This document shows, piece after piece, positions 3,406-53,407 of a stretch of DNA of 64,000 bases. The position numbers and the translations under genes are program-made. This DNA is from Candidatus Daviesbacteria bacterium (GTDB lineage Bacteria; Patescibacteriota; Microgenomatia; Daviesbacterales; UBA10151). How positions within the stretch are numbered: position 1 is the first letter of the stretch; the number at the start of each line of letters is the position of its first letter. Location of the stretch: assembly GCA_016187035.1 (NCBI GenBank), contig JACPKL010000010.1, positions 26,014-90,013 of the forward strand, read 5' to 3'. Under the pieces are notes generated by a model, which worked only from the letters and a program-made list of their open reading frames with translations, did not search any database and was not told where the DNA came from.

Positions 3406-4800
3406 ATGGTTTATCAATTACCGATCAAAGTAAAAAATATCATGAATCAATTTATTCAGAAAGGATTTCAAATCTATATAGTTGGAGGAGCTATACGTGA
3501 TTTATTAATGGGTAAAAACATTAAAGATTGGGACTTTACAACAGATGCATCTCCGGAGCAAATTCTGAAAATATTTCCAGAAGGATTTTATGACAATAAG
3601 TTTGGTACAGTCGGCCTTTTAGTAAACAAAGAAATCTTTGAAATCACCACAATGAGAAAAGAAGGTATTTATAAAGATTTCCGTCATCCTATAAAAGTTT
3701 CCTGGACTAATAAAGTTGAGGAGGATCTAGCAAGACGGGATTTTACTATCAATGCTATAGCATTAGGTACCCCTAGCAAACACCTTCCAGTCAAAGATAT
3801 GAAGACACCTAGCACACACCTGGAAGGTGAAACACTGGGAATTATAGATCCATTCCAGGGCGAACCAGATATTAAAAATAGAATCATAAGAGCTGTTGGG
3901 AATCCTGATCTTCGCTTTCAAGAAGATGCACTCAGATTAATCAGAGCTATTAGAATTGCCACACAACTGGAATTTGAAATTGAAAAGGCAACAAAAAATG
4001 CGATCGTTCAAAATGTTACCTTAATTAACAATATAGCTAATGAACGAATTAGAGATGAATTATTCAAAATCTTAGCATCTGATAATAGTTACCAAGGGAT
4101 TACTCTCTTAAGAGAGGTTGGACTATTACAAATTATTTTACCTGAACTTGAAAAATGCTTTGGAATAATTCAACAAGGTTCTAAACATGCAAGAATTTAC
4201 GATATCGGTGAACATTCCTTACTTACCCTAAGGTATACACCTTCAAAAAATCCACTAGTGAGACTTTCTGCTTTACTCCATGATATTGGCAAACCAAAGA
4301 CTTACCAGGTTACTGATGACGGTAATGCAACATTCTATAATCATGATGTGATGGGAGGAAATTTAGTCTTAAAGATTGCTAAAAAGTTTAACTTACCAAA
4401 GAAACAATCGGATAAACTTTTTAAATTAATCCGCTTTCATATGTTTACAGTCTCAGAATACCAAACTGATTCAGCTATCAGACGATTTATTAGAAATGTC
4501 GGATTAGAAAATATCGATGATATGATGGCCCTCAGAATTGGTGACAGATTAGGTGGAGGCACTCAAAAAGAAACTTCTTGGAGAATGGAAAAATTTCAAC
4601 AAAGAATAAAGCAAGTTATGCAAAAACCATTCTCAGTTACTGATTTGAAAGTTGACGGCAATGATGTAATGCAGATACTAAAAATTAATCCGTGTCCAAA
4701 AGTTGGTGAAATTTTACAAGAACTTTTTGAAGAGGTCTTAAAAGATGATTCTAAAAATAATCGTGATTATTTGCTACAAAGAATAAAAGCGTTTTCCTGA
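3406..4800 (+). CDS. cca: CCA-adding tRNA nucleotidyltransferase with HD domain
   Basis: GGAIRDLLMG, RRDFTINA and the HD motif LLHDIGKP. A ~20-aa extra segment sits between RRDFTINAIA and IIDPFQG (see repeat 3772..3829). Confidence 0.85.
   Translation: MVYQLPIKVKNIMNQFIQKGFQIYIVGGAIRDLLMGKNIKDWDFTTDASPEQILKIFPEGFYDNKFGTVGLLVNKEIFEITTMRKEGIYKDFRHPIKVSWTNKVEEDLARRDFTINAIALGTPSKHLPVKDMKTPSTHLEGETLGIIDPFQGEPDIKNRIIRAVGNPDLRFQEDALRLIRAIRIATQLEFEIEKATKNAIVQNVTLINNIANERIRDELFKILASDNSYQGITLLREVGLLQIILPELEKCFGIIQQGSKHARIYDIGEHSLLTLRYTPSKNPLVRLSALLHDIGKPKTYQVTDDGNATFYNHDVMGGNLVLKIAKKFNLPKKQSDKLFKLIRFHMFTVSEYQTDSAIRRFIRNVGLENIDDMMALRIGDRLGGGTQKETSWRMEKFQQRIKQVMQKPFSVTDLKVDGNDVMQILKINPCPKVGEILQELFEEVLKDDSKNNRDYLLQRIKAFS
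3772..3829 (+). repeat. palindromic insertion inside cca coding sequence
   Basis: Perfect 10-bp inverted repeat: caccttccag (3781-3790) and ctggaaggtg (3820-3829). Direct repeats cctagcaaacacc (3772-3784) and cctagcacacacc (3808-3820). The block is translated in frame as PSKHLPVKDMKTPSTHLEG. Confidence 0.6.
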
Positions 4801-5685
4801 TCAATGTCCAAGTTTTTCCTCCCACCAGACAAGGAGTGCGGTAGCGTTAAAGATTGAAGAATATGTTCCAGAAATAATCCCTACGAGAAGAGCTACTACA
4901 AACCATCTGATGGTTTCTCCACCAAAAAGAAACAAAGCAATCAATACAAAAATTACTGTTAAAGAAGTATTTAATGATCTACCTAAAGTTTGAATTATAG
5001 ATAAATCAGCAATTGCAATAAATTGTCTCCCTGCATACTTTGTTAAATTTTCCCTAATTCTATCAAAAACAACTATGGTGTCATGAACAGAAAAACCTAT
5101 CACTGTTAAAAGAGCTGTAACAAAAAGACTGTCCACCTCGACAGATAAGAACTTCCCTAAAATAGCGAACACTCCTATAACAACTAAAATGTCATGGATC
5201 AATGCTATCGCTGCAGCTATTCCAAATCTTAATGACGATTGGGGTTTTGGAATCTTTCTAAAGGAAAATGCAATATATATAACTATAGCAATAGATGCTA
5301 ATATCAATGCAATCAAAGCTTTTTGCTCTAGCTCTTTTCCAATGATTGGCCCAACGTTTTCAACCCTTCTCTCCTCAACCTTACCAAATTTCTGATTTAA
5401 GTTAGTTTTTAATATACTAATTTTTGCTTGATCTATTGGTTTTGCTCTAATAGTATAGGTATTATCTGTAACATAGTTAATCGAACTAACCTCAATACCA
5501 TTATTCGCAATCTCTTGTTTCAAAATATCAATATCTATATTCTTTTCAAATTTATACTCGATCAAAGCTCCACCTATAAAATCTATTCCCAATTTTAACC
5601 CTGAGGTTAATAAATAATATAAACCTGGTAATATTACTAGTAGCGAAAAAGCAAAATACCAACCCTTAAATCTCATCAAATTCAT
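4801..5685 (-). CDS. secF: protein translocase subunit SecF
   Basis: 294 aa with six TM segments and the SecD/SecF family pattern (LGIDFIGG, FDRIREN). Confidence 0.85.
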   Translation of the reverse strand: MNLMRFKGWYFAFSLLVILPGLYYLLTSGLKLGIDFIGGALIEYKFEKNIDIDILKQEIANNGIEVSSINYVTDNTYTIRAKPIDQAKISILKTNLNQKFGKVEERRVENVGPIIGKELEQKALIALILASIAIVIYIAFSFRKIPKPQSSLRFGIAAAIALIHDILVVIGVFAILGKFLSVEVDSLFVTALLTVIGFSVHDTIVVFDRIRENLTKYAGRQFIAIADLSIIQTLGRSLNTSLTVIFVLIALFLFGGETIRWFVVALLVGIISGTYSSIFNATALLVWWEEKLGH

Positions 5686-12447: not shown

Positions 12448-12712
12448 CCTAGGAAGAAGGATGATTATCCCGCACTAAATTGATGAGGGAAGGAAAGTCC
12501 AGACAGCGTAGAGTAGGGTGGTTACTGCAAGGTAACGGTCGCAAGATCCAGTTAGAGCAACAGTGACGAACCGAGGTTATGCTCGGGTGAAACGTGGCAA
12601 TCCTCCCCGCTGCAATCCTAGAACCGACAGGACTACTCGTCCATTTGTCGAAGTAAGGAGCATTAGATAAATTATCATCTTGTAACAGAATCTGGCTTAC
12701 TATCTTCCTAGG
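12448..12712 (+). ncRNA. rnpB: RNase P RNA (bacterial type A-like, reduced size ~265 nt)
   Basis: The universally conserved blocks are present: GGAAAGTCCagaC (P4 5' side), GGGTGAAA and ACAGAATCTGGCTTA (P4 3' side). The terminal helix pairs cctaggaagaag with cttcctagg. ORF 12449..12715(-) is an artefact of this RNA. Confidence 0.85.
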
Positions 12713-12714
12713 CA

Positions 12715-13683
12715 CTAAACCTTCTTTCCTTCAATTATTTCATTTACGACAATATATGCAACCACAGCAATAGGTACTGCCAATAATGCTCCCATGAACC
12801 CTAAAAGCCTTGAACCTATTGCGATTGCTAAAATCACAACTAGAGGATTTAATCCCACAGCCCTTTTCATCACCTGGGGGACAATCAAATGGTTTTCCAA
12901 CTGTTGAATTACGAAATACATAGCTGTTGTGCCTATACCCAAGATAGGGGAAATTGTTAATGCTATTAAAATCGTTGGTATTGCTGAAATAATTGGACCA
13001 ATTACCGGAACTACTTCCAAAACTCCTGCAACTACTGCTAGAGGCAAGGCGTATGGAATTCCTAGAATCAATAGTCCAATATAAGTTAATATACCAATAA
13101 CCAAACTTAAGAATAACTGTCCCCTAAACCAACCACCTAGCTTTTCCTCTATTTGAATTATCAATCTTTTAATCCTTACCTCTTTCCCTATAAATAAAGC
13201 GGCAGACCGATCTTCTAAATTTTCTCGCTCTAACATTAGATAGAAGGTTAAAACAAGAAGAAATATAATTGTTAAGAGATTATCAAATATAGAAAGTGTA
13301 ATAGATAAAGCACTTTTTGATAAAGCGCTTAATTGCGCTTGAAGAACTGATTTATCTATTGCTGCCATTTCAAGCAACTGATCTAGATATGGAGGAAGAG
13401 TCAAAAAAAGTTTCCTGGTTTCTTCTAACAGAGGAGGTATCACAAGCACCAGCAACCCTGAGACTAAGGCTATAATAATAATGTAGGTTATAGCAATACT
13501 TAATGATTTAGGAACTCTATATTTAGTCAAAAACTTAACCAAAGGAGATAAAGCAGACATTAAGATTACTGCTATGAATAAAATAATTAGTAAATCCCTA
13601 ATTAAATAGATTAACCAAATACCCAATACGAACACGGCAATAAAAATAACCGTCTTATGAGAAACATCAATCTTTTGCGCCAT
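12715..13683 (-). CDS. AI-2E family transporter (PerM/UPF0118)
   Basis: 322 aa with ~8 TM segments and the C-terminal conserved block VPVIGPIISAIP...IVPQVM...GLNPLVVILA. Confidence 0.8.
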   Translation of the reverse strand: MAQKIDVSHKTVIFIAVFVLGIWLIYLIRDLLIILFIAVILMSALSPLVKFLTKYRVPKSLSIAITYIIIIALVSGLLVLVIPPLLEETRKLFLTLPPYLDQLLEMAAIDKSVLQAQLSALSKSALSITLSIFDNLLTIIFLLVLTFYLMLERENLEDRSAALFIGKEVRIKRLIIQIEEKLGGWFRGQLFLSLVIGILTYIGLLILGIPYALPLAVVAGVLEVVPVIGPIISAIPTILIALTISPILGIGTTAMYFVIQQLENHLIVPQVMKRAVGLNPLVVILAIAIGSRLLGFMGALLAVPIAVVAYIVVNEIIEGKKV

Positions 13684-19978: not shown

Positions 19979-21376
19979 ATGGTTTATTTTAAAAAAATTT
20001 TCTTAAACTTAAAGGGACTTTTCATTTTCCCTAAATCTTTTGCAGATAATAAAACCGTACTAAAATATGCAGTATCGCTTTTTTTAATCTGGAGATTGGC
20101 TCTACTTTTTATCGCATTTTTAGGATTAAGTGTCTTCCCAAATCTGGATTTTTATAATAAAAAATTATTCTTCCCTCATATAGGCCTAAATTTTTGGGAC
20201 AGATGGGCTAATTGGGACTCAGGAGCGTTTATGTATATTGCAAAAAACGGATATGTCCCGGGCTGGACAGTCTTTTTCCCATTATACTCAATCTTTATTA
20301 AATTTGTAACACTTTTTGGACTTAATACTTTTTGGGCGGGCTTTCTAATTTCTCAAGTGAGCACCATTATATTTCTATTTTATCTATATAAGATAACCAT
20401 CTTAGATTTTGATACGAAAGTTGCTAAAAGAACACTTTTCGCAATCCTTATTTTCCCCACCAGTTTTTATCTGGGTAGTGTTTATAGCGAATCTTTGTTT
20501 TTAGCAACTTCAATTTCAGCTTGCTATTATGCTAGAAAAGAAAAGTGGTTATTGGCTTCACTATTAGCAGCTTTAGCATCTTCAACTAGACTGGTTGGTC
20601 TCGGAGTAATTCTAGTCATTTTCATTGAGTATTTTACTAAACAACCAAAGATTAATCTTGGTTTCCTCTGGCATAATAGATTCAATAGAGTATCTATCTA
20701 TCTAATTTTAATTATTATTGTTCTAGATATTACTAATAACTCCATTAAAACAAATAACTTACTGATCTCTGGTGTAATAGTTAGTGTAATAGAACTGACT
20801 GCTTGGATTTTGATACTAGTTGGTCTACTTATATTGTCTCAATTTATAAAGTCTATGAAAAGTATAAATATTAATAAAATCTTATCTATTAATTTTGGGT
20901 ATTTATATCTTTCTTTACTTCCTTTTGCTGCTTATCTTCTCTATCAAAAATTTAGATTTGGCTCATATCTAACATTCATTAAAAGTGAGTCCTGGTGGGG
21001 CCGAACACTTAGCGAACCTTGGATAGGACCCTTATATAGTTTCCTGTATCTAATATCAAACTCACCAACTACAACTGAGTTTACTGCTCACATATATGTT
21101 AGGTCTCTAGTTTTTATTATAAGTTTAGTTTGCTTAATAATCTGTTGCTACAAATTACGTCCTTCCTATATTGCCTTTTATTTGATAGCTTTTCTTTTCC
21201 CCTTATTTTCAGGAACCTTGGCCGATTTTCCTAGATATTCTTTAATAATCTTCCCAATGTTTATTATTTTTGGAACAATCAAAAATGAGTTGATCCAAAA
21301 AATGAGTATACTTTTTTCAATACTTCTACTCTCTGTTTTAACTATTCTTTATTTCAACTCTTACTTTTTTATCTAG
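19979..21376 (+). CDS. GT-C-type membrane glycosyltransferase (PIG-V-like), paralog of 14685..15845
   Basis: 465 aa, multi-TM, with the motif WDRWANWDSGAFMYIAKNGY. TATAAT at 19965-19970 lies 8 nt upstream of the ATG. Confidence 0.6.
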   Translation: MVYFKKIFLNLKGLFIFPKSFADNKTVLKYAVSLFLIWRLALLFIAFLGLSVFPNLDFYNKKLFFPHIGLNFWDRWANWDSGAFMYIAKNGYVPGWTVFFPLYSIFIKFVTLFGLNTFWAGFLISQVSTIIFLFYLYKITILDFDTKVAKRTLFAILIFPTSFYLGSVYSESLFLATSISACYYARKEKWLLASLLAALASSTRLVGLGVILVIFIEYFTKQPKINLGFLWHNRFNRVSIYLILIIIVLDITNNSIKTNNLLISGVIVSVIELTAWILILVGLLILSQFIKSMKSININKILSINFGYLYLSLLPFAAYLLYQKFRFGSYLTFIKSESWWGRTLSEPWIGPLYSFLYLISNSPTTTEFTAHIYVRSLVFIISLVCLIICCYKLRPSYIAFYLIAFLFPLFSGTLADFPRYSLIIFPMFIIFGTIKNELIQKMSILFSILLLSVLTILYFNSYFFI

Positions 21377-27170: not shown

Positions 27171-27436
27171 AACAACATTTAAACATTAAAATCTATGGTT
27201 TAGTCCAGGGAATATTTTTTAGAGCAACAGCTAAGAAGCAAGCTGAAAAATTAAATATCACAGGCTTTGCCAGAAATGAACCAGATGGTTCAGTATATAT
27301 TGAAGCAGAAGGGGAAAAGAACAATTTAGATAAATTCATCAAATGGTGTAATAAAGGTCCTTCCATGGCAGAGGTAGAAAAAGTTATTATTGAAGAAAGT
27401 AAATTACAAAATTTCCCCAACTTCGAAATATATTAA
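27167..27436 (+). CDS. acyP: acylphosphatase
   Basis: 89 aa: YGLVQGIFFRATAKKQAEKLNITGFARNEPDGSVYIEAEGE. Confidence 0.85.
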   Translation: MKQHLNIKIYGLVQGIFFRATAKKQAEKLNITGFARNEPDGSVYIEAEGEKNNLDKFIKWCNKGPSMAEVEKVIIEESKLQNFPNFEIY

Positions 27437-27527: not shown

Positions 27528-27556
27528 TTTGCTCTAATGATACGTATCATCTTAAT
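27528..27556 (-). promoter_or_regulatory. copy 1 of the 28-nt palindrome-centred motif (no gene attached)
   Basis: tttgctctaATGATACGTATCATcttaat sits in the convergent spacer between acyP and metK. In the other copies an ATG follows the motif; here the corresponding triplet is ATT. Confidence 0.5.
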
Positions 27557-27591: not shown

Positions 27592-28707
27592 CTAAACTAT
27601 TCTTTCCCAGGGGAATTCTTCCCTACCGAAGTGACCATAGGAAGCTGTAGGAAGATATATTGGCCTTTGCAAATCTAATCCTTTTAATATCCCCGCAACC
27701 GAAGTATCTAAAATTTTCTCCATAAAAGACAAAATAACTTTATGTGATTTTTTAGCTGTCCCAAAAGTCTCTACATCCTGCATAGTTGGTTTTTTTGCCC
27801 CTATAAAATAAGCAAGTCTTACTTCTGCCCTGTCTGCTAATTTTTGTGCCACAATATTTTTAGCTAAATACCTGGCAGCATATGCACCTGAGCGGTCAAC
27901 TTTTGTTGGGTCCTTTCCTGAAAAAGCGCCTCCTCCTACCCTGGCATATCCTCCATATCCATCCACTACAATTTTTCTGCCGGTAACTCCACAATCAGCA
28001 GCAGGACCGCCATGATGCCAAACCCCTGTCCCGTTAACAATTAAGTCTTTAATATCAATTTTGTATCCAAACTGCTCTAAAACTGGCATCACCACTGCAT
28101 TATAGATATCTTTTTTAACTTTATTTAATTTAACTGACTCTTCATGAGGTATCGCAATTACTACTTGTAAAACCTTTTTTGGCTTACCATTTTCATACTC
28201 TACAGTTATCTGGCTTTTGCCATCTGGCCGAAGGTATGGGACTAACTTTTCCTCCCTGACTTGATCCATTCTTTTGGTTAAAGCGTGGGCTATCATAATA
28301 GCTGTTGGCATCAGTTCTTTAGTTTCCGAACAAGCGTATCCGAATTGCATTCCCTGGTCACCAGCTCCTTTATGATCTACCCCCACTGAAATTTCCGGTG
28401 ATTGTTCATGAATATGCAAATCAATTAAAGATTTATCAGAAAAATTATAGATAGAATCCGTATACCCTAATCTTCTGATTTGCTCTCTGGCAACTTTTTT
28501 AAAATCCACTTTAGCATTTGCTGTAATTTCTCCGGAAATTACCACCCTGTTAAAACCTACCAATGTTTCACAGGCCACATGTCCAAATCTGTCCTGGGTT
28601 AAGACTGCATCTAATATTGCATCAGAAATTTGGTCACAGATTTTATCCGGATGACCTGCGCATACTGATTCAGACGTAAATGTTGTAATACCATTACTTT
28701 TTATCAT
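27592..28707 (-). CDS. metK: S-adenosylmethionine synthetase
   Basis: GHPDKICDQISD, GAGDQG and GGGAFSGKD. The start is moved to Met29 (ATG 28707) because the upstream 84 nt belong to the riboswitch/terminator. Confidence 0.9.
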   Translation of the reverse strand: MIKSNGITTFTSESVCAGHPDKICDQISDAILDAVLTQDRFGHVACETLVGFNRVVISGEITANAKVDFKKVAREQIRRLGYTDSIYNFSDKSLIDLHIHEQSPEISVGVDHKGAGDQGMQFGYACSETKELMPTAIMIAHALTKRMDQVREEKLVPYLRPDGKSQITVEYENGKPKKVLQVVIAIPHEESVKLNKVKKDIYNAVVMPVLEQFGYKIDIKDLIVNGTGVWHHGGPAADCGVTGRKIVVDGYGGYARVGGGAFSGKDPTKVDRSGAYAARYLAKNIVAQKLADRAEVRLAYFIGAKKPTMQDVETFGTAKKSHKVILSFMEKILDTSVAGILKGLDLQRPIYLPTASYGHFGREEFPWERIV

Positions 28708-47824: not shown

Positions 47825-49999
47825 TTAGCGCTCAACCCGGCCGGTAAAGCCTGAGGACTCGACAATTTTTTGAGTAATATTTTGTGGAACCGGTTCATAA
47901 TGGTCTGCTTCCATATAATAAGTAGCCCTGCCCTGAGACATACTCCTGATAGCTGTAGCATATCCATGCATTTCAGCCAGAGGCACTAAGGCCAATACCA
48001 CCCTGGCATTTCCCCTTGACTCAGATGATAAAATCTGAGCTCTTTTTGAGGATAAATCACCAATAATCTCACCTAAAAATTCATCGGGAGTGGTTACTTC
48101 CACTTTCATTATTGGCTCAAGTAAAATCATATCTGCAATTTTGGCTGCCTCAGACAAGCCTAAAGAGGCTGCAATTTTAAAAGCTATCTCAGAGGAATCA
48201 ACATCATGAAAAGAACCGTCATAAACAGTCACTTTAATATCTGTAACAGGGAAGCCTGCTAAAATCCCTGTATCTTCTTTTTCAATCACTCCTTTTTCAA
48301 TTGGCGGTATAAACTCTCTTGGAATGGCTCCGCCAACCACCTCTGAAACAAATTCCCTGCCTTGCCCTCTTGGCAATGGTTCAATCTTCAAAAGACAATG
48401 TCCATATTGACCCCTGCCACCTGTCTGCCTGATATATTTACCCTCTCCTTCAGCATATTTAGTAATAGTCTCTTTATAAGCTACCTGCGGCTGGCCAACA
48501 TTAGCATCAACTTTAAACTCTCTTTTCATTCTATCTACTAAAATTTCCAGTTGTAATTCTCCCATGCCGGCAATAATAGTTTGGCCTGTTTCAGCATCAG
48601 ACTTAACCCTGAAAGTAGGATCTTCCTCAGCCAGTCTTTGTAAAGACAATCCCAGTCTCTCCTGATCTGATTTAGTTTTGGGTTCAATAGCCAAAGAAAT
48701 GACCGGATCTGGAAAAGTGATAGACTCTAAAATAATTGGCGAAGTTTCATCGCATAAAGTATCTCCGGTAATAGTATCTTTAAGCCCAACAGCTGCCACA
48801 ATTTCTCCGGCAAAAGCCTCTTCAATTTCTTCCCTGTCATTAGCATGCATTAAAAGCAGCCTGCCTACCCGTTCTTTAATTTGTTTGGTAGAGTTATAAA
48901 CATAAGAACCGCTCTTTAAAGTTCCTGAGTAAACTCTAATATAAGTTAATTTCCCCACATGAGGATCAACCTGAATTTTAAAAGCCAAAGCAGATAAAGA
49001 AGCTTTAGGATCTGTTTTCTCAATATCCTGGGGAGAAGGCAGATATTCCACCACACAATCTAACATTTTTTGGACACCTTTATTTCTTAGAGATGACCCT
49101 GCTAAAACTGGAACAATCTTACTCCCAATGACAGCTCTTCTTAAAGCAAGTTTCAACTCTTCAACGGACATATCTTGCCCGCCCAAGTATTTTTCCATTA
49201 AGATATCATCAGTACCGGCAATTTCTTCAACTAATTTTTCCCTGGCTGCTTTAACTTCTTCCGCCATATCAGCAGGAATTTCTACTTCATTAAATTTAGC
49301 GCCGGTATCACTTGTCCCGAGCGGACCTGTCCTGAGCGGACCTGTCCTGAGCGAAGTCGAAGGAGTCGAAGGAGTCGAAGGAGCCGAGGGATCACCTTCC
49401 CAAATATAGGCTTTTTCAGTCAGTAAATCTACCACACCTTTAAAATCATTTTCCCGTCCAATGGGTAAATTGTAGGCAATGGCATTGGCCCCTAACCTAT
49501 CCCTGGCAGACTGGATTGTAGCCTGAAAATCTGCACCCACCACATCCATTTTATTGGAAAAAGCAATCAAAGGCACATTGTATTTGTTAGCCTGCCTCCA
49601 GACAGTCTCTGTTTGAGACTGCACTCCTGAGGAAGAATCCAACACAATTACCGCACCATCTAATACTCTCAAAGACCTTTCCACCTCAGCAGTAAAATCT
49701 ACATGTCCGGGAGTATCAATTAAATTAATTCTATTTTCCAAAGACTCAAAAAGACCCTGTTTAACTGTCCAAAAGGCAGTAATTGCAGCAGATACAATGG
49801 TGATACCACGTTCCCTTTCCTGCTCCATCCAGTCAGTAGTAGTAGTTCCCTCGTCAATATCACCAATTTTATAAGTTCTGCCCGTATAAAAAAGAATTCT
49901 TTCAGTGGTGGTGGTCTTCCCTGCATCAATGTGAGCGATTATCCCAATGTTTCTAATCCTATCTAAGGGGAAATCTCTGTTAGTCTTTTGTAAGCCCAT
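47825..49999 (-). CDS. fusA: elongation factor G (with in-frame repeat insertion in the G' region)
   Basis: [20 protein letters not shown] and NKMD, with domains II-V present. 724 aa. Confidence 0.95.
49314..49393 (-). repeat. expanded copy of the GC-rich mini-repeat inserted in frame in fusA
   Basis: The plus strand is gtcccga-(gcggacctgtcctga)x2-gcgaa-(gtcgaagga)x3-gccgagggatc. It is read on the minus strand as [27 protein letters not shown]. Confidence 0.8.
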
Positions 50000-50221
50000 T
50001 TAATTTTTCTCCAATTCCTTAATAATCTTTTTTACCTGCTCAATCTGCACTCTTAAAGTTGTTGCATCCTCAATAGCCATAGAATAGGCTGCATTTTCAG
50101 ACAAATCCCCTTCTTGAGCAGCCAAGCCCTTTTTTTGCTGAACTGCAACCAGCTGCTCTTCCAGCTTTTTGAGGTTATCCTGCCACATTTTTAGTTTTTC
50201 TTGTTTTAAATTTTCGTCCAT
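50000..50221 (-). CDS. GreA/GreB N-terminal coiled-coil-only protein (no C-terminal globular domain)
   Basis: 73 aa. EGDLSENAAYSMAIED matches the Gre-factor finger tip (GDLSENAEY). The stop abuts the fusA ATG with no gap. Confidence 0.6.
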   Translation of the reverse strand: MDENLKQEKLKMWQDNLKKLEEQLVAVQQKKGLAAQEGDLSENAAYSMAIEDATTLRVQIEQVKKIIKELEKN

Positions 50222-50224
50222 ATC

Positions 50225-50249
50225 TAAAAAACCTCCCTCAAGGGAGGTC
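50225..50249 (-). terminator. rho-independent terminator downstream of the toxin gene; its 3' arm doubles as a GGGAGG SD-like element
   Basis: The minus strand reads ACCTCCCttgAGGGAGGT-TTTTT-agat-ATG(50221). Confidence 0.55.
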
Positions 50250-50314
50250 CCATTGGTAAATATTAAGTAATCCGATCCTAAAAGTCAAATACACCTATCC
50301 TTCAAAGTTTTGTT

Positions 50315-50581
50315 TTACTGGTAATGATCATTAATATCTACAACTTCTATCTCACCTACCTCAATCATACCAAATATGGCTCTATATTTGTGATCGATTC
50401 TAAATGAATATAGATTAAGATCTTTGGGTTCTAGTTTTTCTGTATTAAGAGAGGGATGGGAAATATTTTCTTCAAGTAATTTAATTTGTTTGGTGTATTT
50501 TTCACTTAAATTGCGCTTGGTCAAATATTTAGCTAGCCTTACTTTAAGAGGTTTTATCTTCATAAAAAGAAGAGTCTTCAA
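50315..50581 (-). CDS. RelE/ParE-superfamily type II toxin
   Basis: 88 aa. NISHPSLNTEKLEPKDLNLYSFRIDHKYRAIFGMIEVGEIEVVDINDHY fits the RelE/YafQ-like pattern (HPSL..+KL.....YS.RI...YRAIF......I.V..I..H). It overlaps the upstream RHH gene. An alternative start is Met7 at 50563. Confidence 0.65.
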   Translation of the reverse strand: MKTLLFMKIKPLKVRLAKYLTKRNLSEKYTKQIKLLEENISHPSLNTEKLEPKDLNLYSFRIDHKYRAIFGMIEVGEIEVVDINDHYQ

Positions 50582-50819
50582 GTCCTCGTATTATACTTTT
50601 AATGAACTTTTGGTTATATTTACCTGTTTTGAGCAGATCTGTTTCAACCTCTTCTAAGGGCTTTCTTACAAAGGATCTAAACTCAATTTCTCCGCTGGAG
50701 AAATATCTTCTTAGTAAACTTCTGATAAATTCAGAACGGGTTGCGAAACCCCGCCTTTTTGTCTCAGAATCAACGTTCTTTGCTATTTGATCTGGAAGAG
50801 AAATAGTGACGGTTGTCAT
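50544..50819 (-). CDS. ribbon-helix-helix (CopG/ParD-like) antitoxin
   Basis: Trimmed to MTTVTISLPDQIAKNVDSETKRRGFATRSEFIRSLLRRYF (ATG 50819), which has the classic RHH beta-strand plus two helices. Confidence 0.65.
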   Translation of the reverse strand: MTTVTISLPDQIAKNVDSETKRRGFATRSEFIRSLLRRYFSSGEIEFRSFVRKPLEEVETDLLKTGKYNQKFIKSIIRGLEDSSFYEDKTS

Positions 50820-50828
50820 ATTACTAAT

Positions 50829-50857
50829 ATTTAACAATATTTGTGAATTTTTGTCAA
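50829..50857 (-). promoter_or_regulatory. candidate promoter of the TA pair
   Basis: The minus strand reads TTGACA-17 nt-TTAAAT-attagtaat-ATG(50819). Confidence 0.45.
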
Positions 50858-50878
50858 GGTTTGGATAGATTCCAAAAG

Positions 50879-51409
50879 TCAACCCAACTGATAACTCCAT
50901 CCTGGTTGCCACTTAAATAGGGTTGTTGTCAAGGTTTCTAATGATACTCCTTTTATCCAATGCTCTAATCCAAATCGAGTGGCACGATGCCCAATAATCA
51001 TTACCTTTTTATCCTCATAATTTATCTTTAAATCATCCAAGAAATCCTTTATTCTTTTAGATGACTGTTCATAACTCTCACCATTCGGGAATGGTTCTGT
51101 TATATAATTAATCAGTTGGGGTTCCACTTCACTACTTGGATGCCTGGTTAAATCACCGTAATCACATTCCCTAAGTCTTGGATCTTTAATAATTGGAAAC
51201 TTTTTTCCAAAAGCAATTTCTGCGGTTTTGTATGACCTTTGTAAATCAGAGCAAAAGATAGTATCGAACTTTTGATCTTTATATCTTCTACCTAATTGTT
51301 TCGCTTGTTGCTCACCAAGTGATGAAAGCGTTATATCATTGTGTCCAGATGATAAGTAATTCTCATTATCCAAACTAGTAGCGTGGGTTTCAAAAATGAT
51401 TGTTATCAT
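50879..51409 (-). CDS. histidine phosphatase superfamily protein (PGAM-like) with non-canonical first motif
   Basis: 176 aa. SDLQRSYKTAEI and IIGHRATR fit the family. The N-terminal motif reads FETHATSLDN where RHGxT..N is expected (Arg to Thr, Gly to Ala). Confidence 0.6.
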   Translation of the reverse strand: MITIIFETHATSLDNENYLSSGHNDITLSSLGEQQAKQLGRRYKDQKFDTIFCSDLQRSYKTAEIAFGKKFPIIKDPRLRECDYGDLTRHPSSEVEPQLINYITEPFPNGESYEQSSKRIKDFLDDLKINYEDKKVMIIGHRATRFGLEHWIKGVSLETLTTTLFKWQPGWSYQLG

Positions 51410-51412
51410 ATA

Positions 51413-51441
51413 CTTGCTCTAATGATTCGTATCATCTTAAT
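51413..51441 (-). promoter_or_regulatory. copy 2 of the 28-nt palindrome-centred motif, 12 nt upstream of the phosphatase ATG
   Basis: cttgctctaATGATtCGTATCATcttaat, with one central mismatch in the palindrome. Confidence 0.55.
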
Positions 51442-51446
51442 AGATG

Positions 51447-51893
51447 CTAAAAAGCCTTTTTGTCTTTGGATTTTTTCTCAAGTTCTTTTTTTAAATATCT
51501 CCATGCCCCACTACCTTTTCCTCTGGTTGCTGGAGTTATTAATACTTGAGCAGTTTTGTTAAGAATCTCTTTTAATTTTTCATCTCTTAAAATTCTGCTT
51601 ACAGCCTTTTTATAACCATTACTCCCATATTTTATAGCATTATTAACCACAGCCACCGTTTGGAAACTGACATGCAAAACTTTATTTATTTCCCGATATT
51701 CATATCCTTGAGTTAAAAGGAAAGCGATAGCTAATCTTTTAGTTAGCATTATTCGTTCTGTAGGGGTAAGTAAATCACTAACAATTTCATCTGCATCTTG
51801 AGAATTTTTAATCCCAATTAAAGTCTTCGTAAATATTTCCCAACATCTGTCATAAACATCTTTGGAGATTGGATATTTTGAAACTTGGGTCAT
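51447..51893 (-). CDS. YerC/YecD-like TrpR-family DNA-binding protein
   Basis: 148 aa. LLTPTERIMLTKRLAIAFLLTQGYEYREINKVLHVSFQTVAVVNN matches the TrpR-related YerC pattern. Confidence 0.6.
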   Translation of the reverse strand: MTQVSKYPISKDVYDRCWEIFTKTLIGIKNSQDADEIVSDLLTPTERIMLTKRLAIAFLLTQGYEYREINKVLHVSFQTVAVVNNAIKYGSNGYKKAVSRILRDEKLKEILNKTAQVLITPATRGKGSGAWRYLKKELEKKSKDKKAF

Positions 51894-51921
51894 TTGCTTT
51901 GATGATACGTATCATCTTAAT
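51893..51921 (-). promoter_or_regulatory. copy 3 of the 28-nt palindrome-centred motif, abutting the yerC-like start codon
   Basis: caTTTGCTTTGATGATACGTATCATCTTAAT. On the minus strand, the TATCAT of the palindrome lies 8 nt upstream of the ATG. Confidence 0.55.
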
Positions 51922-51975
51922 AATAGTAAGAAAAATATACTATGTCAATAATTTTGAGTATTTTGATATTGGAGT

Positions 51976-52146
51976 TTATTTTTTACTTTCGGATTTTCTA
52001 AATAAAGCAACTGCAATTTCTGCATTTGATGCACCCTGCTGGCTTAAGATAAGGATATTTTCTGCAAGCTCCCTTACTGATTGGACAGTATTATACCCAC
52101 TTTCTGGTAGAATGTCATAGCAGGTTCTGGGGCAGTTCTTAATCCA
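51976..52146 (-). pseudogene. start-less reading frame encoding a truncated LuxR-type HTH remnant
   Basis: The frame -1 relative to ORF 52074..52367 reads ...SVRELAENILILSQQGASNAEIAVALFRKSESKK*. This matches G-x-SN-x-EIA-x2-L of LuxR/FixJ HTHs but stops before the recognition helix ends. There is no ATG/GTG/TTG start in the open frame. Confidence 0.35.
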
Positions 52147-52367
52147 TTAACTCCTTCTTGTCTAAGGTAAGCCTCTATTCCTTTTAGAATCTCACTTCCA
52201 GCAACAGCTGCATCTCCTTCATTTAGATCGTCTGGGGGAAACTTTGATAATTCTAAAGCCCTAGCAATTAAAGGATGGGATTGTCTATTGATTGGCCCAT
52301 TAGGAGATCTATGTTTAGCAACTTTTAGGGCAACAATTAGTCCCTCTACTTTTCTTTCTATTGGCAC
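52074..52367 (-). CDS. hypothetical protein (possibly degenerate)
   Basis: 97 aa. The C-terminal ...AMTFYQKVGI weakly recalls a GNAT C-terminal strand (A..FY.K.GF). No confident family. Confidence 0.35.
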   Translation of the reverse strand: MPIERKVEGLIVALKVAKHRSPNGPINRQSHPLIARALELSKFPPDDLNEGDAAVAGSEILKGIEAYLRQEGVNGLRTAPEPAMTFYQKVGIILSNQ

Positions 52368-52942: not shown

Positions 52943-53407
52943 TTAGGCTGCTGGTGTGGGTGTTACTTTAGGAGCAGCTGCTCTAGGAACAACCCCAGCA
53001 CCTCCTTTCTTAGTACCATATATGCTTCTACCTCTTTTTCTACCTACTACTCCGGCCAAATCCAGCTTGCCTCTAATTAAATGATATTTAACTCCAGGCA
53101 AATCTTTAACCCTGCCTCCCCGAACCAAAACTATACCATGTTCTGCTAAGCTGTGGCCTTCACCTTGGATATATGCTGTAACCTCTGTTCTGTTAGACAG
53201 CCTGACCCTGGCTACTTTTCTTAAAGCAGAGTTTGGTTTTTTAGGAGTCATAGTTTTGACTAAAGTAACTACACCCCTTTTTTGAGGGTTAAAATCTTGA
53301 GTATAATGTCTGTCTTTAGCATTAAAGCTACGACGCAGCGCAGTAGCTTTAATTTTTTTAGTCAGTCTTTTCCGACCTTTTCGAATTAATTGGTTAATTG
53401 TTGGCAT
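52943..53407 (-). CDS. rpsL: 30S ribosomal protein S12 (with Ala/Pro-rich C-terminal extension)
   Basis: [12 protein letters not shown]...[10 protein letters not shown]... Confidence 0.9.

Follow-up and report, generated by a model that had tools for sequence, protein, structure and literature searches.

In this study, we describe a repeated 28-nt palindromic motif and the gene that it brackets in a stretch of 64,000 nucleotides (hereafter, the window) of contig JACPKL010000010.1 from Candidatus Daviesbacteria bacterium, a low-GC (~35%) bacterial region with the gene order rpoB-rpoC-rpsL-rpsG-[six extra genes]-fusA-tuf-S10-spc. The motif is likely to be the operator of a 148-aa TrpR/HisR-family repressor encoded among the six extra genes, which would thereby control its own expression. 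One copy touches the start codon of the gene and another follows its stop codon, and the palindromes found at the same places in related genomes are specific to each lineage and to each paralog, a pattern that strongly supports both a cognate operator and autoregulation.

Copies of the motif in the window

A previous examination of the DNA, made from the letters alone (the sequence-only reading), had pointed to three copies of the motif in the same orientation. A scan of the window with the degenerate 28-mer TTGCTYTRATGATWCGTATCATCTTAAT bears this out, with three exact matches (Table 1) where 0.00 are expected and none is found in 100 shuffles; the start coordinates given earlier are each one base low. 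The 14-mer core ATGATACGTATCAT is a perfect palindrome at 27537-27550 and at 51902-51915, and the core of copy 2 (51422-51435) carries the single central mismatch already noticed (ATGATTCGTATCAT on the plus strand). When up to two mismatches are allowed, the core is matched three times against 0.21 expected, a number reached in 0 of 100 shuffles. Alignment of the flanks of the three copies shows a sharp drop in similarity at either edge of the 28-mer. All of the relevant genes are encoded on the minus strand, on which the motif reads ATTAAGATGATACGTATCATYARAGCAA.

The cores of copies 3 and 2 end, as had been stated, 8 and 12 nt before the ATGs of the 148-aa TrpR-like gene (51893) and of a 176-aa phosphatase gene (51409), respectively. 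What had escaped remark is that these two copies, 480 bp apart, bracket the 148-aa gene. Copy 3 (hereafter operator 1) abuts its start, and copy 2 (operator 2) begins 5 nt past its stop codon and ends 4 nt short of the phosphatase ATG. Copy 1 lies apart from both.

Table 1. Coordinates of the putative repressor module and of related elements in the window
Feature	Position	Strand	Remarks
Histidine-phosphatase-superfamily gene, 176 aa	50879..51409	-	PF00300, 107 bits; downstream of operator 2
TrpR/HisR-family repressor gene (putative), 148 aa	51447..51893	-	Six-helix core (residues ~11-102) and ~45-residue C-terminal extension
Operator 1 (copy 3, candidate), ATTAAGATGATACGTATCATCAAAGCAA	51894..51921	-	28-nt block touching the ATG of the TrpR-like gene
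Perfect 14-bp palindromic core, ATGATACGTATCAT	51902..51915	.	Promoter-distal half TATCAT at 51907-51902 (- strand)
Operator 2 (copy 2, candidate), ATTAAGATGATACGAATCATTAGAGCAA	51414..51441	-	Between the repressor stop codon and the phosphatase ATG
Orphan operator (copy 1, candidate), ATTAAGATGATACGTATCATTAGAGCAA	27529..27556	-	35 nt past the metK stop codon
Sigma-70-like promoter (predicted), TTGACA-N17-TATTAT	51920..51948	-	-35 at 51948-51943, -10 at 51925-51920; 11/12 matches

A TrpR-family protein with a C-terminal extension

The 148-aa protein matches Pfam Trp_repressor (PF01371) over residues 18-100 with 57.5 bits, against a gathering cutoff of 27, and the only structures matched by its family profile are those of the HisR/YerC type, namely 3KOR, 3G1C, and 3FRW (E~1e-11, residues 16-105). 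In the AlphaFold2 model (mean predicted local distance difference test score, pLDDT, of 77, with 82-95 in the core), helices at residues 11-26, 31-41, 44-61, 66-73, 77-89, and 93-102 correspond to the six helices of TrpR. Foldseek gives target-normalised template modelling (TM) scores of 0.76-0.86 to 3FRW, 3KOR, and 3G1C, and of 0.55-0.71 to Escherichia coli TrpR; the model and the structural matches thus agree on a six-helix TrpR fold with its helix-turn-helix. Residues ~105-148 make up a conserved extension (GKGSGxWRYLKxEL...), in which the model shows two helices of low confidence. Homologs of 146-152 aa number about 300, all of them carrying PF01371, and the named ones come without exception from Daviesbacteria, Levybacteria, or other Microgenomates/Patescibacteria.

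The protein had been labelled YerC/TrpR-like. Membership in the TrpR family is borne out by domain score and fold, whereas the YerC part of the label is too narrow, the protein scoring just under the equivalog cutoff of the NCBIfam YerC/YecD family TIGR02531 (39.7 vs 42.2) and carrying the additional ~45-residue extension. From its sequence, it appears to represent a C-terminally extended TrpR/HisR-like subfamily specific to the Candidate Phyla Radiation (CPR). A visual comparison of the recognition helix with the type of core suggests co-variation, which is confounded by phylogeny and is not claimed here.

Palindromes at orthologous loci

A total of 80 orthologous loci (L-numbers below) were fetched from reference genomes of Microgenomates/Patescibacteria. 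A palindrome ends 0-30 nt before the ATG in nearly every ortholog, and arms of at least 9 bp are found within 90 nt upstream in 52 of 79 orthologs, compared with 8 of 374 random positions. The core varies by lineage with its symmetry kept, ATGATTTAAATCAT being the commonest form beside ATGATTCGAATCAT, ATGATACGTATCAT, ATGTACCGTTACAT, ATGTATTAATACAT, ATGTTTTAAAACAT, and ATACTTTAAAGTAT, and several relatives have perfect palindromes of 24-38 bp, such as TGCTTTAATGATTTAAATCATTAAAGCA, which at 28 bp is as long as the block in the window. The bases of the ATG...CAT in these palindromes are conserved as sequence, beyond mere pairing. On average, the two operators of a gene differ at 3.0 of their 28 positions, and those of different loci at 10.7. 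In the 84% relative (L081), 26 of the 28 motif positions are identical while the flanks diverge.

In genomes with two paralogs, each paralog has its own distinct site (e.g., L048 vs L077, or the pair L061 and L076, with cores ATGATTCGAATCAT and ATGTTTTAAAACAT). Such lineage- and paralog-specific sites are expected where a protein and the site that it binds have evolved together. The association of the motif with yerC-like genes in relatives, proposed earlier as a check, is therefore found phylum-wide, and this co-occurrence together with the co-variation gives the idea of a cognate, autoregulatory operator its strong support.

The co-variation and the paralog-specific sites argue at the same time against another binder. 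The obvious one would be the CopG-type ribbon-helix-helix (RHH) protein encoded at 50544-50912, two genes downstream, as palindromes and 8-bp tandem sites are bound by RHH proteins such as MetJ as well. The 80 orthologous loci yielded no RHH homolog, whereas the TrpR-like gene is always bracketed by sites there, and recognition of the motif by a protein of this kind is hardly credible.

A mobile cassette, with the repeats as its ends or recombination sites (28-bp dif- or attC-like) and the TrpR-like gene as its cargo, would account for direct repeats that bracket the gene exactly and for a gene position that differs by lineage, be it inside the str operon, upstream of recA, or between the homologs of the window genes 3406-4800 and 4801-5685. 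The positional classes are, however, old paralogs (58% vs 68% identity) rather than recent moves. The annotated neighbours include no recombinase or transposase, and copies of the motif are very few. The sites also change together with the protein and remain distinct between paralogs, and promoter elements are conserved beside operator 1, all of which makes the cassette very improbable. The paralog lying between the homologs of 3406-4800 and 4801-5685 was seen as a second TrpR-like gene in L007, L011, L012, L025, and L028. It has flanking palindromes of its own, of the TTGATTTAAATCAT type in four of the five. In the window, 3406-4800 (plus strand) and 4801-5685 (minus strand) are convergent and abut without a spacer. 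L002 and L012 belong to one genome, which holds both paralogs.

Architecture of the sites

The arms of the sites repeat with a period of 8 bp, with an identity of 0.55 between the inner 8-mer and the sequence lying 8 bp outward of it, compared with 0.21-0.36 at the other offsets (4-15) and with 0.466 +/- 0.008 in a control with the outer arms permuted among sites. Clear examples are L070 (ATGTTTCG.ATGTATCG / CGATACAT.CGAAACAT) and L065 (TGTATTAA.TGTATTAA.TACATTAA). This pattern is what a palindromic operator of the TrpR type, with an 8-bp half-site repeat, would look like. TrpR likewise has half-sites at 8-bp intervals, to which its dimers bind in tandem (PMC9413887; PDB 1TRR title), and, by analogy, the sites of 24-30 bp may hold two overlapping dimers. 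The case for tandem dimers is weaker in the window than in the relatives with perfect palindromes of 24-38 bp. The arms of the window motif are nevertheless shared by its three copies and by L081 (26/28), and are therefore under selection.

Palindromes at the 5' and 3' ends of a gene could also work as RNA, by terminating transcription through a hairpin, by directing processing, or by influencing translation, and those of the relatives could form stems of 12-19 bp. In the window, by contrast, the hairpins have little stability (-3.2 to -6.0 kcal/mol, with z scores between -1.8 and +0.3), and the fold of copy 2 is not that of the palindrome; the mismatched bases of copy 2, like those of L081, are A-A rather than G-U. 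The palindromes have neither a loop nor a U-tract, a terminator scan found no terminator at the sites, and Rfam finds nothing at the motifs, its only hits in the window being ribonuclease (RNase) P RNA and tRNA-Pro. Moreover, in a clade with the -10 box downstream of the palindrome (see below), operator 1 would escape transcription, and the conservation of ATG...CAT as sequence is more than pairing would demand. A function at the RNA level is thus very unlikely.

Predicted promoters of the putative repressor gene

The sequence-only reading had missed a predicted sigma-70-like promoter, TTGACA-N17-TATTAT, which is the best promoter-like match at copy 3. It stands 26 nt ahead of the ATG at 51893, and its last 2 nt fall within operator 1. 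The -10 box, TAT(C/T)AT, is invariant across six related genomes, in which the spacers have diverged, and the -35 box is TTGACA in three of the six, TAGACA in L001, and TTGACT in L005; the position of the promoter is kept in L081, L001, L003, and L005. As read from its sequence, this promoter predicts a transcription start inside the operator core and a leader of ~20 nt that lacks a Shine-Dalgarno (SD) sequence.

The sequence-only reading had proposed instead that a leaderless mRNA has its -10 box in the TATCAT half of the palindrome (for the phosphatase gene, AATCAT with a short leader), where the repressor would cover it. Several features agree with such a layout. No SD precedes the 148-aa gene, and 8 nt separate its ATG from the TATCAT, a spacing that fits leaderless-type -10 boxes; the distance from core to ATG across orthologs has a sharp mode at 8 nt. 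A core SD precedes only 16 of 68 window genes, and strong -10-like hexamers are ~4-fold enriched 6-10 nt before start codons. They are found in 13 of 70 window genes, including rpsL (TAGAAT-N8-ATG) and those at 19979, 26466, 50315, 60736, and 62538, mostly without a recognisable -35. These figures suggest that leaderless or near-leaderless mRNAs may be common in this organism. L031 and L060, furthermore, have a good -35 box 17-18 nt before the TATCAT in the palindrome, and in L016 three sites share a 30-nt block touching three ATGs.

On the other hand, the corresponding promoter, CTTACT-17-TATCAT (score 8.5), has a poor -35 box and competes with the near-perfect, clade-conserved TTGACA-N17-TATTAT just upstream. 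The distance from palindrome to ATG is 14 nt in the 84% relative, compared with 8 nt in the window, the corresponding hexamer is AATCAT or worse in most lineages, and copy 1 carries the same TATCAT without a downstream ATG. The earlier proposal agrees with the frequency of close -10 boxes and with the 8-nt spacing, and the TATCAT is a possible, though less probable, -10 box for the 148-aa gene. A promoter of the leaderless type is clearly indicated by its sequence in another clade (L007, L011, L012, L017, L018, and L028), where a -35 box, TTGATT, lies inside the palindrome and the -10 box 6-8 nt before the ATG. As the operator overlaps core promoter elements in every layout, autorepression would follow either way.

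The candidate operator past the stop codon

In 53 of 68 loci, a second copy of the lineage-specific 14-mer is found immediately past the stop codon of the TrpR-like gene. The core of this operator 2 lies at a median of 9.5 nt past the stop codon, and its centre at a median of 485 bp from that of operator 1. Among 48 loci, the gene that follows has the same direction in 34 and is convergent in 11, and in 3 no gene follows. Its identity also changes. A histidine phosphatase follows operator 2 in the window, L001, L003, and L005, a B3_4-domain gene takes its place in the 84% relative, and a RecA gene is found in L041, L044, L047, L051, and L069; elsewhere, the followers are TatD-like hydrolases, lamin-tail/PT-rich surface proteins, or a Mur ligase. 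A conserved downstream target gene was accordingly rejected, tblastn and inspection showing that the neighbours differ between lineages.

Three Gottesmanbacteria-like loci (L046, L065, and L075) have a tRNA-Leu(CAA) gene after operator 2, 40-75 nt past the palindrome, and there a stable-RNA gene may be part of the regulon. Stable-RNA genes as a common target of operator 2 were discarded, as the tRNA-Leu(CAA) is limited to these three loci and no rRNA was found.

Because it is kept whatever the identity or direction of the next gene, operator 2 belongs to the module of the regulator gene and is not simply the operator of the neighbour. Copies 3 and 2 of the window are one instance of a phylum-wide operator-gene-operator arrangement, and the phosphatase gene is a probable co-regulated target in this clade only. 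The earlier suggestion of a repressor occluding the -10 box of its neighbour is too narrow, since 11 and 3 of the 48 loci, respectively, maintain the site with a convergent gene or no gene behind it, and no -10 box is conserved before it.

Instead of being classical promoter operators, operator 2 and the orphan sites could be regulated roadblocks or insulators at gene boundaries, where the bound repressor would halt RNA polymerase on its way out of or into the adjacent gene; in the window, this would modulate read-through in the rpsL-rpsG...fusA-tuf operon. This would be in keeping with the position of operator 2 so close to the stop codon in more than 50 loci, with next genes in either orientation or missing, and with its lack of a conserved upstream promoter. 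It would also agree with the orphan sites that overlap stop codons or gene junctions (copy 1, L089, L093, L098, and L007) and with the location of the regulator module inside the str operon throughout the clade. These arguments are purely positional, and compact genomes push any intergenic site to a gene boundary. In addition, operator 2 sits 7-16 nt before the next ATG in ~13 loci, the same layout as that of operator 1, which fits a promoter-operator role. We therefore regard a general roadblock function as possible and less probable than not.

In the window, the first codons of the phosphatase gene (ATGATAACAATCAT, encoding MITII, 51396-51409) are a near-copy of the operator core, located 26 bp centre-to-centre from operator 2, with weaker versions in L001 and L003; this may be a simple coding coincidence.

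Orphan sites and the extent of the presumed regulon

A scan of the metagenome collection with TTAARATGATWCGWATCATYA retrieved only 14 stretches. The two operators of the 84% relative are among them, as are four orphan sites with a common extended arm, ...ATCATTAGAGCAA. Two of the orphan sites (L089 and L093) overlap stop codons, one (L098) lies at a gene junction, and one (L099) is inside alaS. In the reference loci, extra sites amount to about one per 70 kb, again at gene boundaries. Given so few metagenome stretches and such rare extra sites, the motif appears to mark a small regulon. A high-copy dispersed repeat, which would have spoken against the operator, is not seen, the window itself having 3 copies in 64 kb.

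The orphan site of L099 (1832-1852) is a 27/28 match to the window motif within the alanyl-tRNA synthetase coding region (...FALMIRIIL... on the gene strand). At L098 (2270-2290), where two tandem paralogs meet, a PMT-like glycosyltransferase gene (MIRIIRAK...) apparently starts with the ATG of the palindrome itself. In two Patescibacteria genomes, L016 (3979, 4457, and 6060) and L013 (6714), a ~100-aa TsaB-like gene (MxLYIDTSDN...) located behind a TsaE-like gene has a third operator copy 8-11 nt ahead of its ATG. By its position, the TsaB-like gene appears to be a conserved extra member of the regulon in the L016/L013 lineage.

Copy 1 of the window is located between the 3' ends of the convergent metK (minus strand, stop at 27592) and acylphosphatase (plus strand, end at 27436) genes, a situation comparable to that of the orphan sites at stop codons in L089 and L093. 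It faces the 3' end of the acylphosphatase/B3_4 operon, with tRNA-Pro and recA located ~1.1 kb beyond it on the same strand. Two of these nearby genes, B3_4 and recA, are the immediate followers of operator 2 in other genomes. The metagenome scan revealed no relative with the motif beside metK, acylphosphatase, or B3_4 in the arrangement of the window. A small open reading frame (ORF) or a known RNA after copy 1 was considered and rejected, as only a doubtful 29-aa TTG ORF and a 9/12 promoter-like match are present.

A model for the repressor module

In the mechanism that we infer from these sequences, for binding and repression as well as for stoichiometry, effector, and the role of operator 2, the repressor would bind ATGATACGTATCAT and the flanking arms as a dimer, probably as two overlapping tandem dimers. 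Operator 1 covers the predicted start of the TTGACA-N17-TATTAT promoter and the alternative -10 box TATCAT, and the bound repressor would block RNA polymerase at either promoter, resulting in negative autoregulation. As with TrpR and HisR, a small-molecule corepressor would presumably modulate the repression. Operator 2 would most likely limit transcription into the phosphatase gene, either as a roadblock to read-through or by occlusion of a weak promoter, and copy 1 would be a third, orphan site of a small regulon.

Several observations weigh against this interpretation. The arms of the window sites are not symmetric beyond the 14-16-bp core. The gene after operator 2 varies or is convergent, and no -10 box is conserved upstream of this operator. 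Copy 1 adjoins no start codon and has no gene to regulate in the usual sense, and the neighbours within the regulon (phosphatase, B3_4, RecA, TatD-like, surface proteins, tRNA-Leu, and TsaB-like) have no functional theme. Finally, the distances between operators 1 and 2 are evenly spread modulo 10.5, and this absence of helical phasing gives no support to a loop; the spacing is in fact uninformative as to DNA looping, which it neither supports nor excludes.

A more speculative view, which we consider improbable, takes the bracket as a self-contained CPR/Microgenomates module. Its repressor would act both at promoters and as a metabolite-controlled roadblock or insulator at gene boundaries, by means of the C-terminal extension and of tandem binding on sites of 28-30 bp, and it would gate the read-through from rpsL-rpsG into fusA-tuf. 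If so, the gating would couple the supply of translation factors to that of nutrients from the host or the environment. The ~30-nt block of promoter, operator, and start would moreover be portable and would have been copied to new genes, as with the three near-identical blocks in the window and in L016.

Relation to known repressors

YerC of Bacillus subtilis is HisR, a histidine-responsive repressor of the TrpR family with 20-bp palindromic operators (cacTTTA-N6-TAAAgtg), and HisR autoregulation has been described in 183 genomes (PMC9413887). HisR-type proteins are the closest relatives of the 148-aa protein in sequence and structure (3KOR, 3G1C, and 3FRW), and the two systems have in common palindromic operators with a lineage-specific consensus and, probably, frequent autoregulation. 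The outer arms CACTTTA...TAAAGTG of L051, L069, and L008 are HisR half-sites, but 14 bp apart, and the 24-bp site of the relatives is compatible with a pair of overlapping TTTA-N6-TAAA sites shifted by 8 bp. In contrast, the proteins described here have 148-150 aa with the conserved ~45-residue extension, whereas HisR has fewer than 100 aa and consists of the domain only. The operators reach 24-38 bp instead of 20 bp, and the window site ATTAAGATGATACGTATCATYARAGCAA does not fit cacTTTA-N6-TAAAgtg. The HisR regulon comprises histidine biosynthesis or transport genes, while no his genes lie beside the sites in the loci examined here, and a second operator past the stop codon has not been described for HisR.

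With E. coli TrpR (trpR, aroH, and trp operators), the system shares the fold, an operator overlapping the promoter, and the 8-bp half-site repeat, and probably also autoregulation and binding by tandem dimers (PDB 1TRR; PMC9413887). The two differ in sequence (~22% identity; TM scores of 0.55-0.71) and in half-site, which is GNACT in TrpR and ATGAT/ATGTA here. Sites that bracket a gene are not a known feature of TrpR.

Auxiliary or downstream operators are known from classical repressors (lac O2, gal OI, and deo), as are protein roadblocks to transcription. The likeness lies in a second cognate site a few hundred bp downstream of the promoter-proximal operator; here, however, this site is just past the coding region of the regulator, is conserved across the phylum, and shows no helical phasing. 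An autoregulated repressor is a conventional class of mechanism, and it is the second operator past the stop codon and the extended sites with 8-bp periodicity that go beyond what has been described for TrpR and HisR.

The CPR/Patescibacteria, a group of ultra-small bacteria that have not been cultivated, have tiny genomes with few recognisable regulators. A literature search on CPR, Patescibacteria, or Microgenomates together with TrpR or leaderless returned no relevant description and no characterised pair of transcription factor and operator. In this regard, the 148-aa protein and the 28-bp site offer a testable pair, conserved and diversified across Microgenomates and further lineages of Patescibacteria, and the natural specificity variants, including pairs of paralogs in one genome, could serve to work out the recognition code. 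The presence of the module inside the str operon in this clade suggests a metabolite signal linked to the expression of translation factors.

Neighbouring genes and other features of the window

The rpsL-rpsG-fusA-tuf operon, usually compact, is split here between rpsG and fusA by the six extra genes (50000-50912 and 52074-52367). In addition to the genes of the TrpR-like protein and the phosphatase, they include a 97-aa ORF without family match. In the same interval, the gene of the CopG-type RHH protein (122 aa) overlaps that of a RelE/ParE/YoeB-like toxin (88 aa), and a 73-aa protein consists of the N-terminal coiled-coil domain of GreA/GreB only. The GreA_N gene and the TrpR-like gene are both kept at the rpsG-fusA position in L002-L005.

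Elongation factor G (EF-G; 724 aa, 47825-49999) has a low-complexity insertion after the G domain, the EF-G of the 84% relative having 712 aa, and ribosomal protein S12 (154 aa, 52943-53407) has a ~30-residue C-terminal extension rich in Gly, Ala, and Pro. Farther away, Rfam places a class A RNase P RNA on the plus strand at 12449-12715 (108 bits against a threshold of 100); with 267 nt for a model of 367 positions, it appears to be a reduced form. Because this RNA occupies the same coordinates, an 88-aa GTG ORF on the opposite strand is probably spurious.

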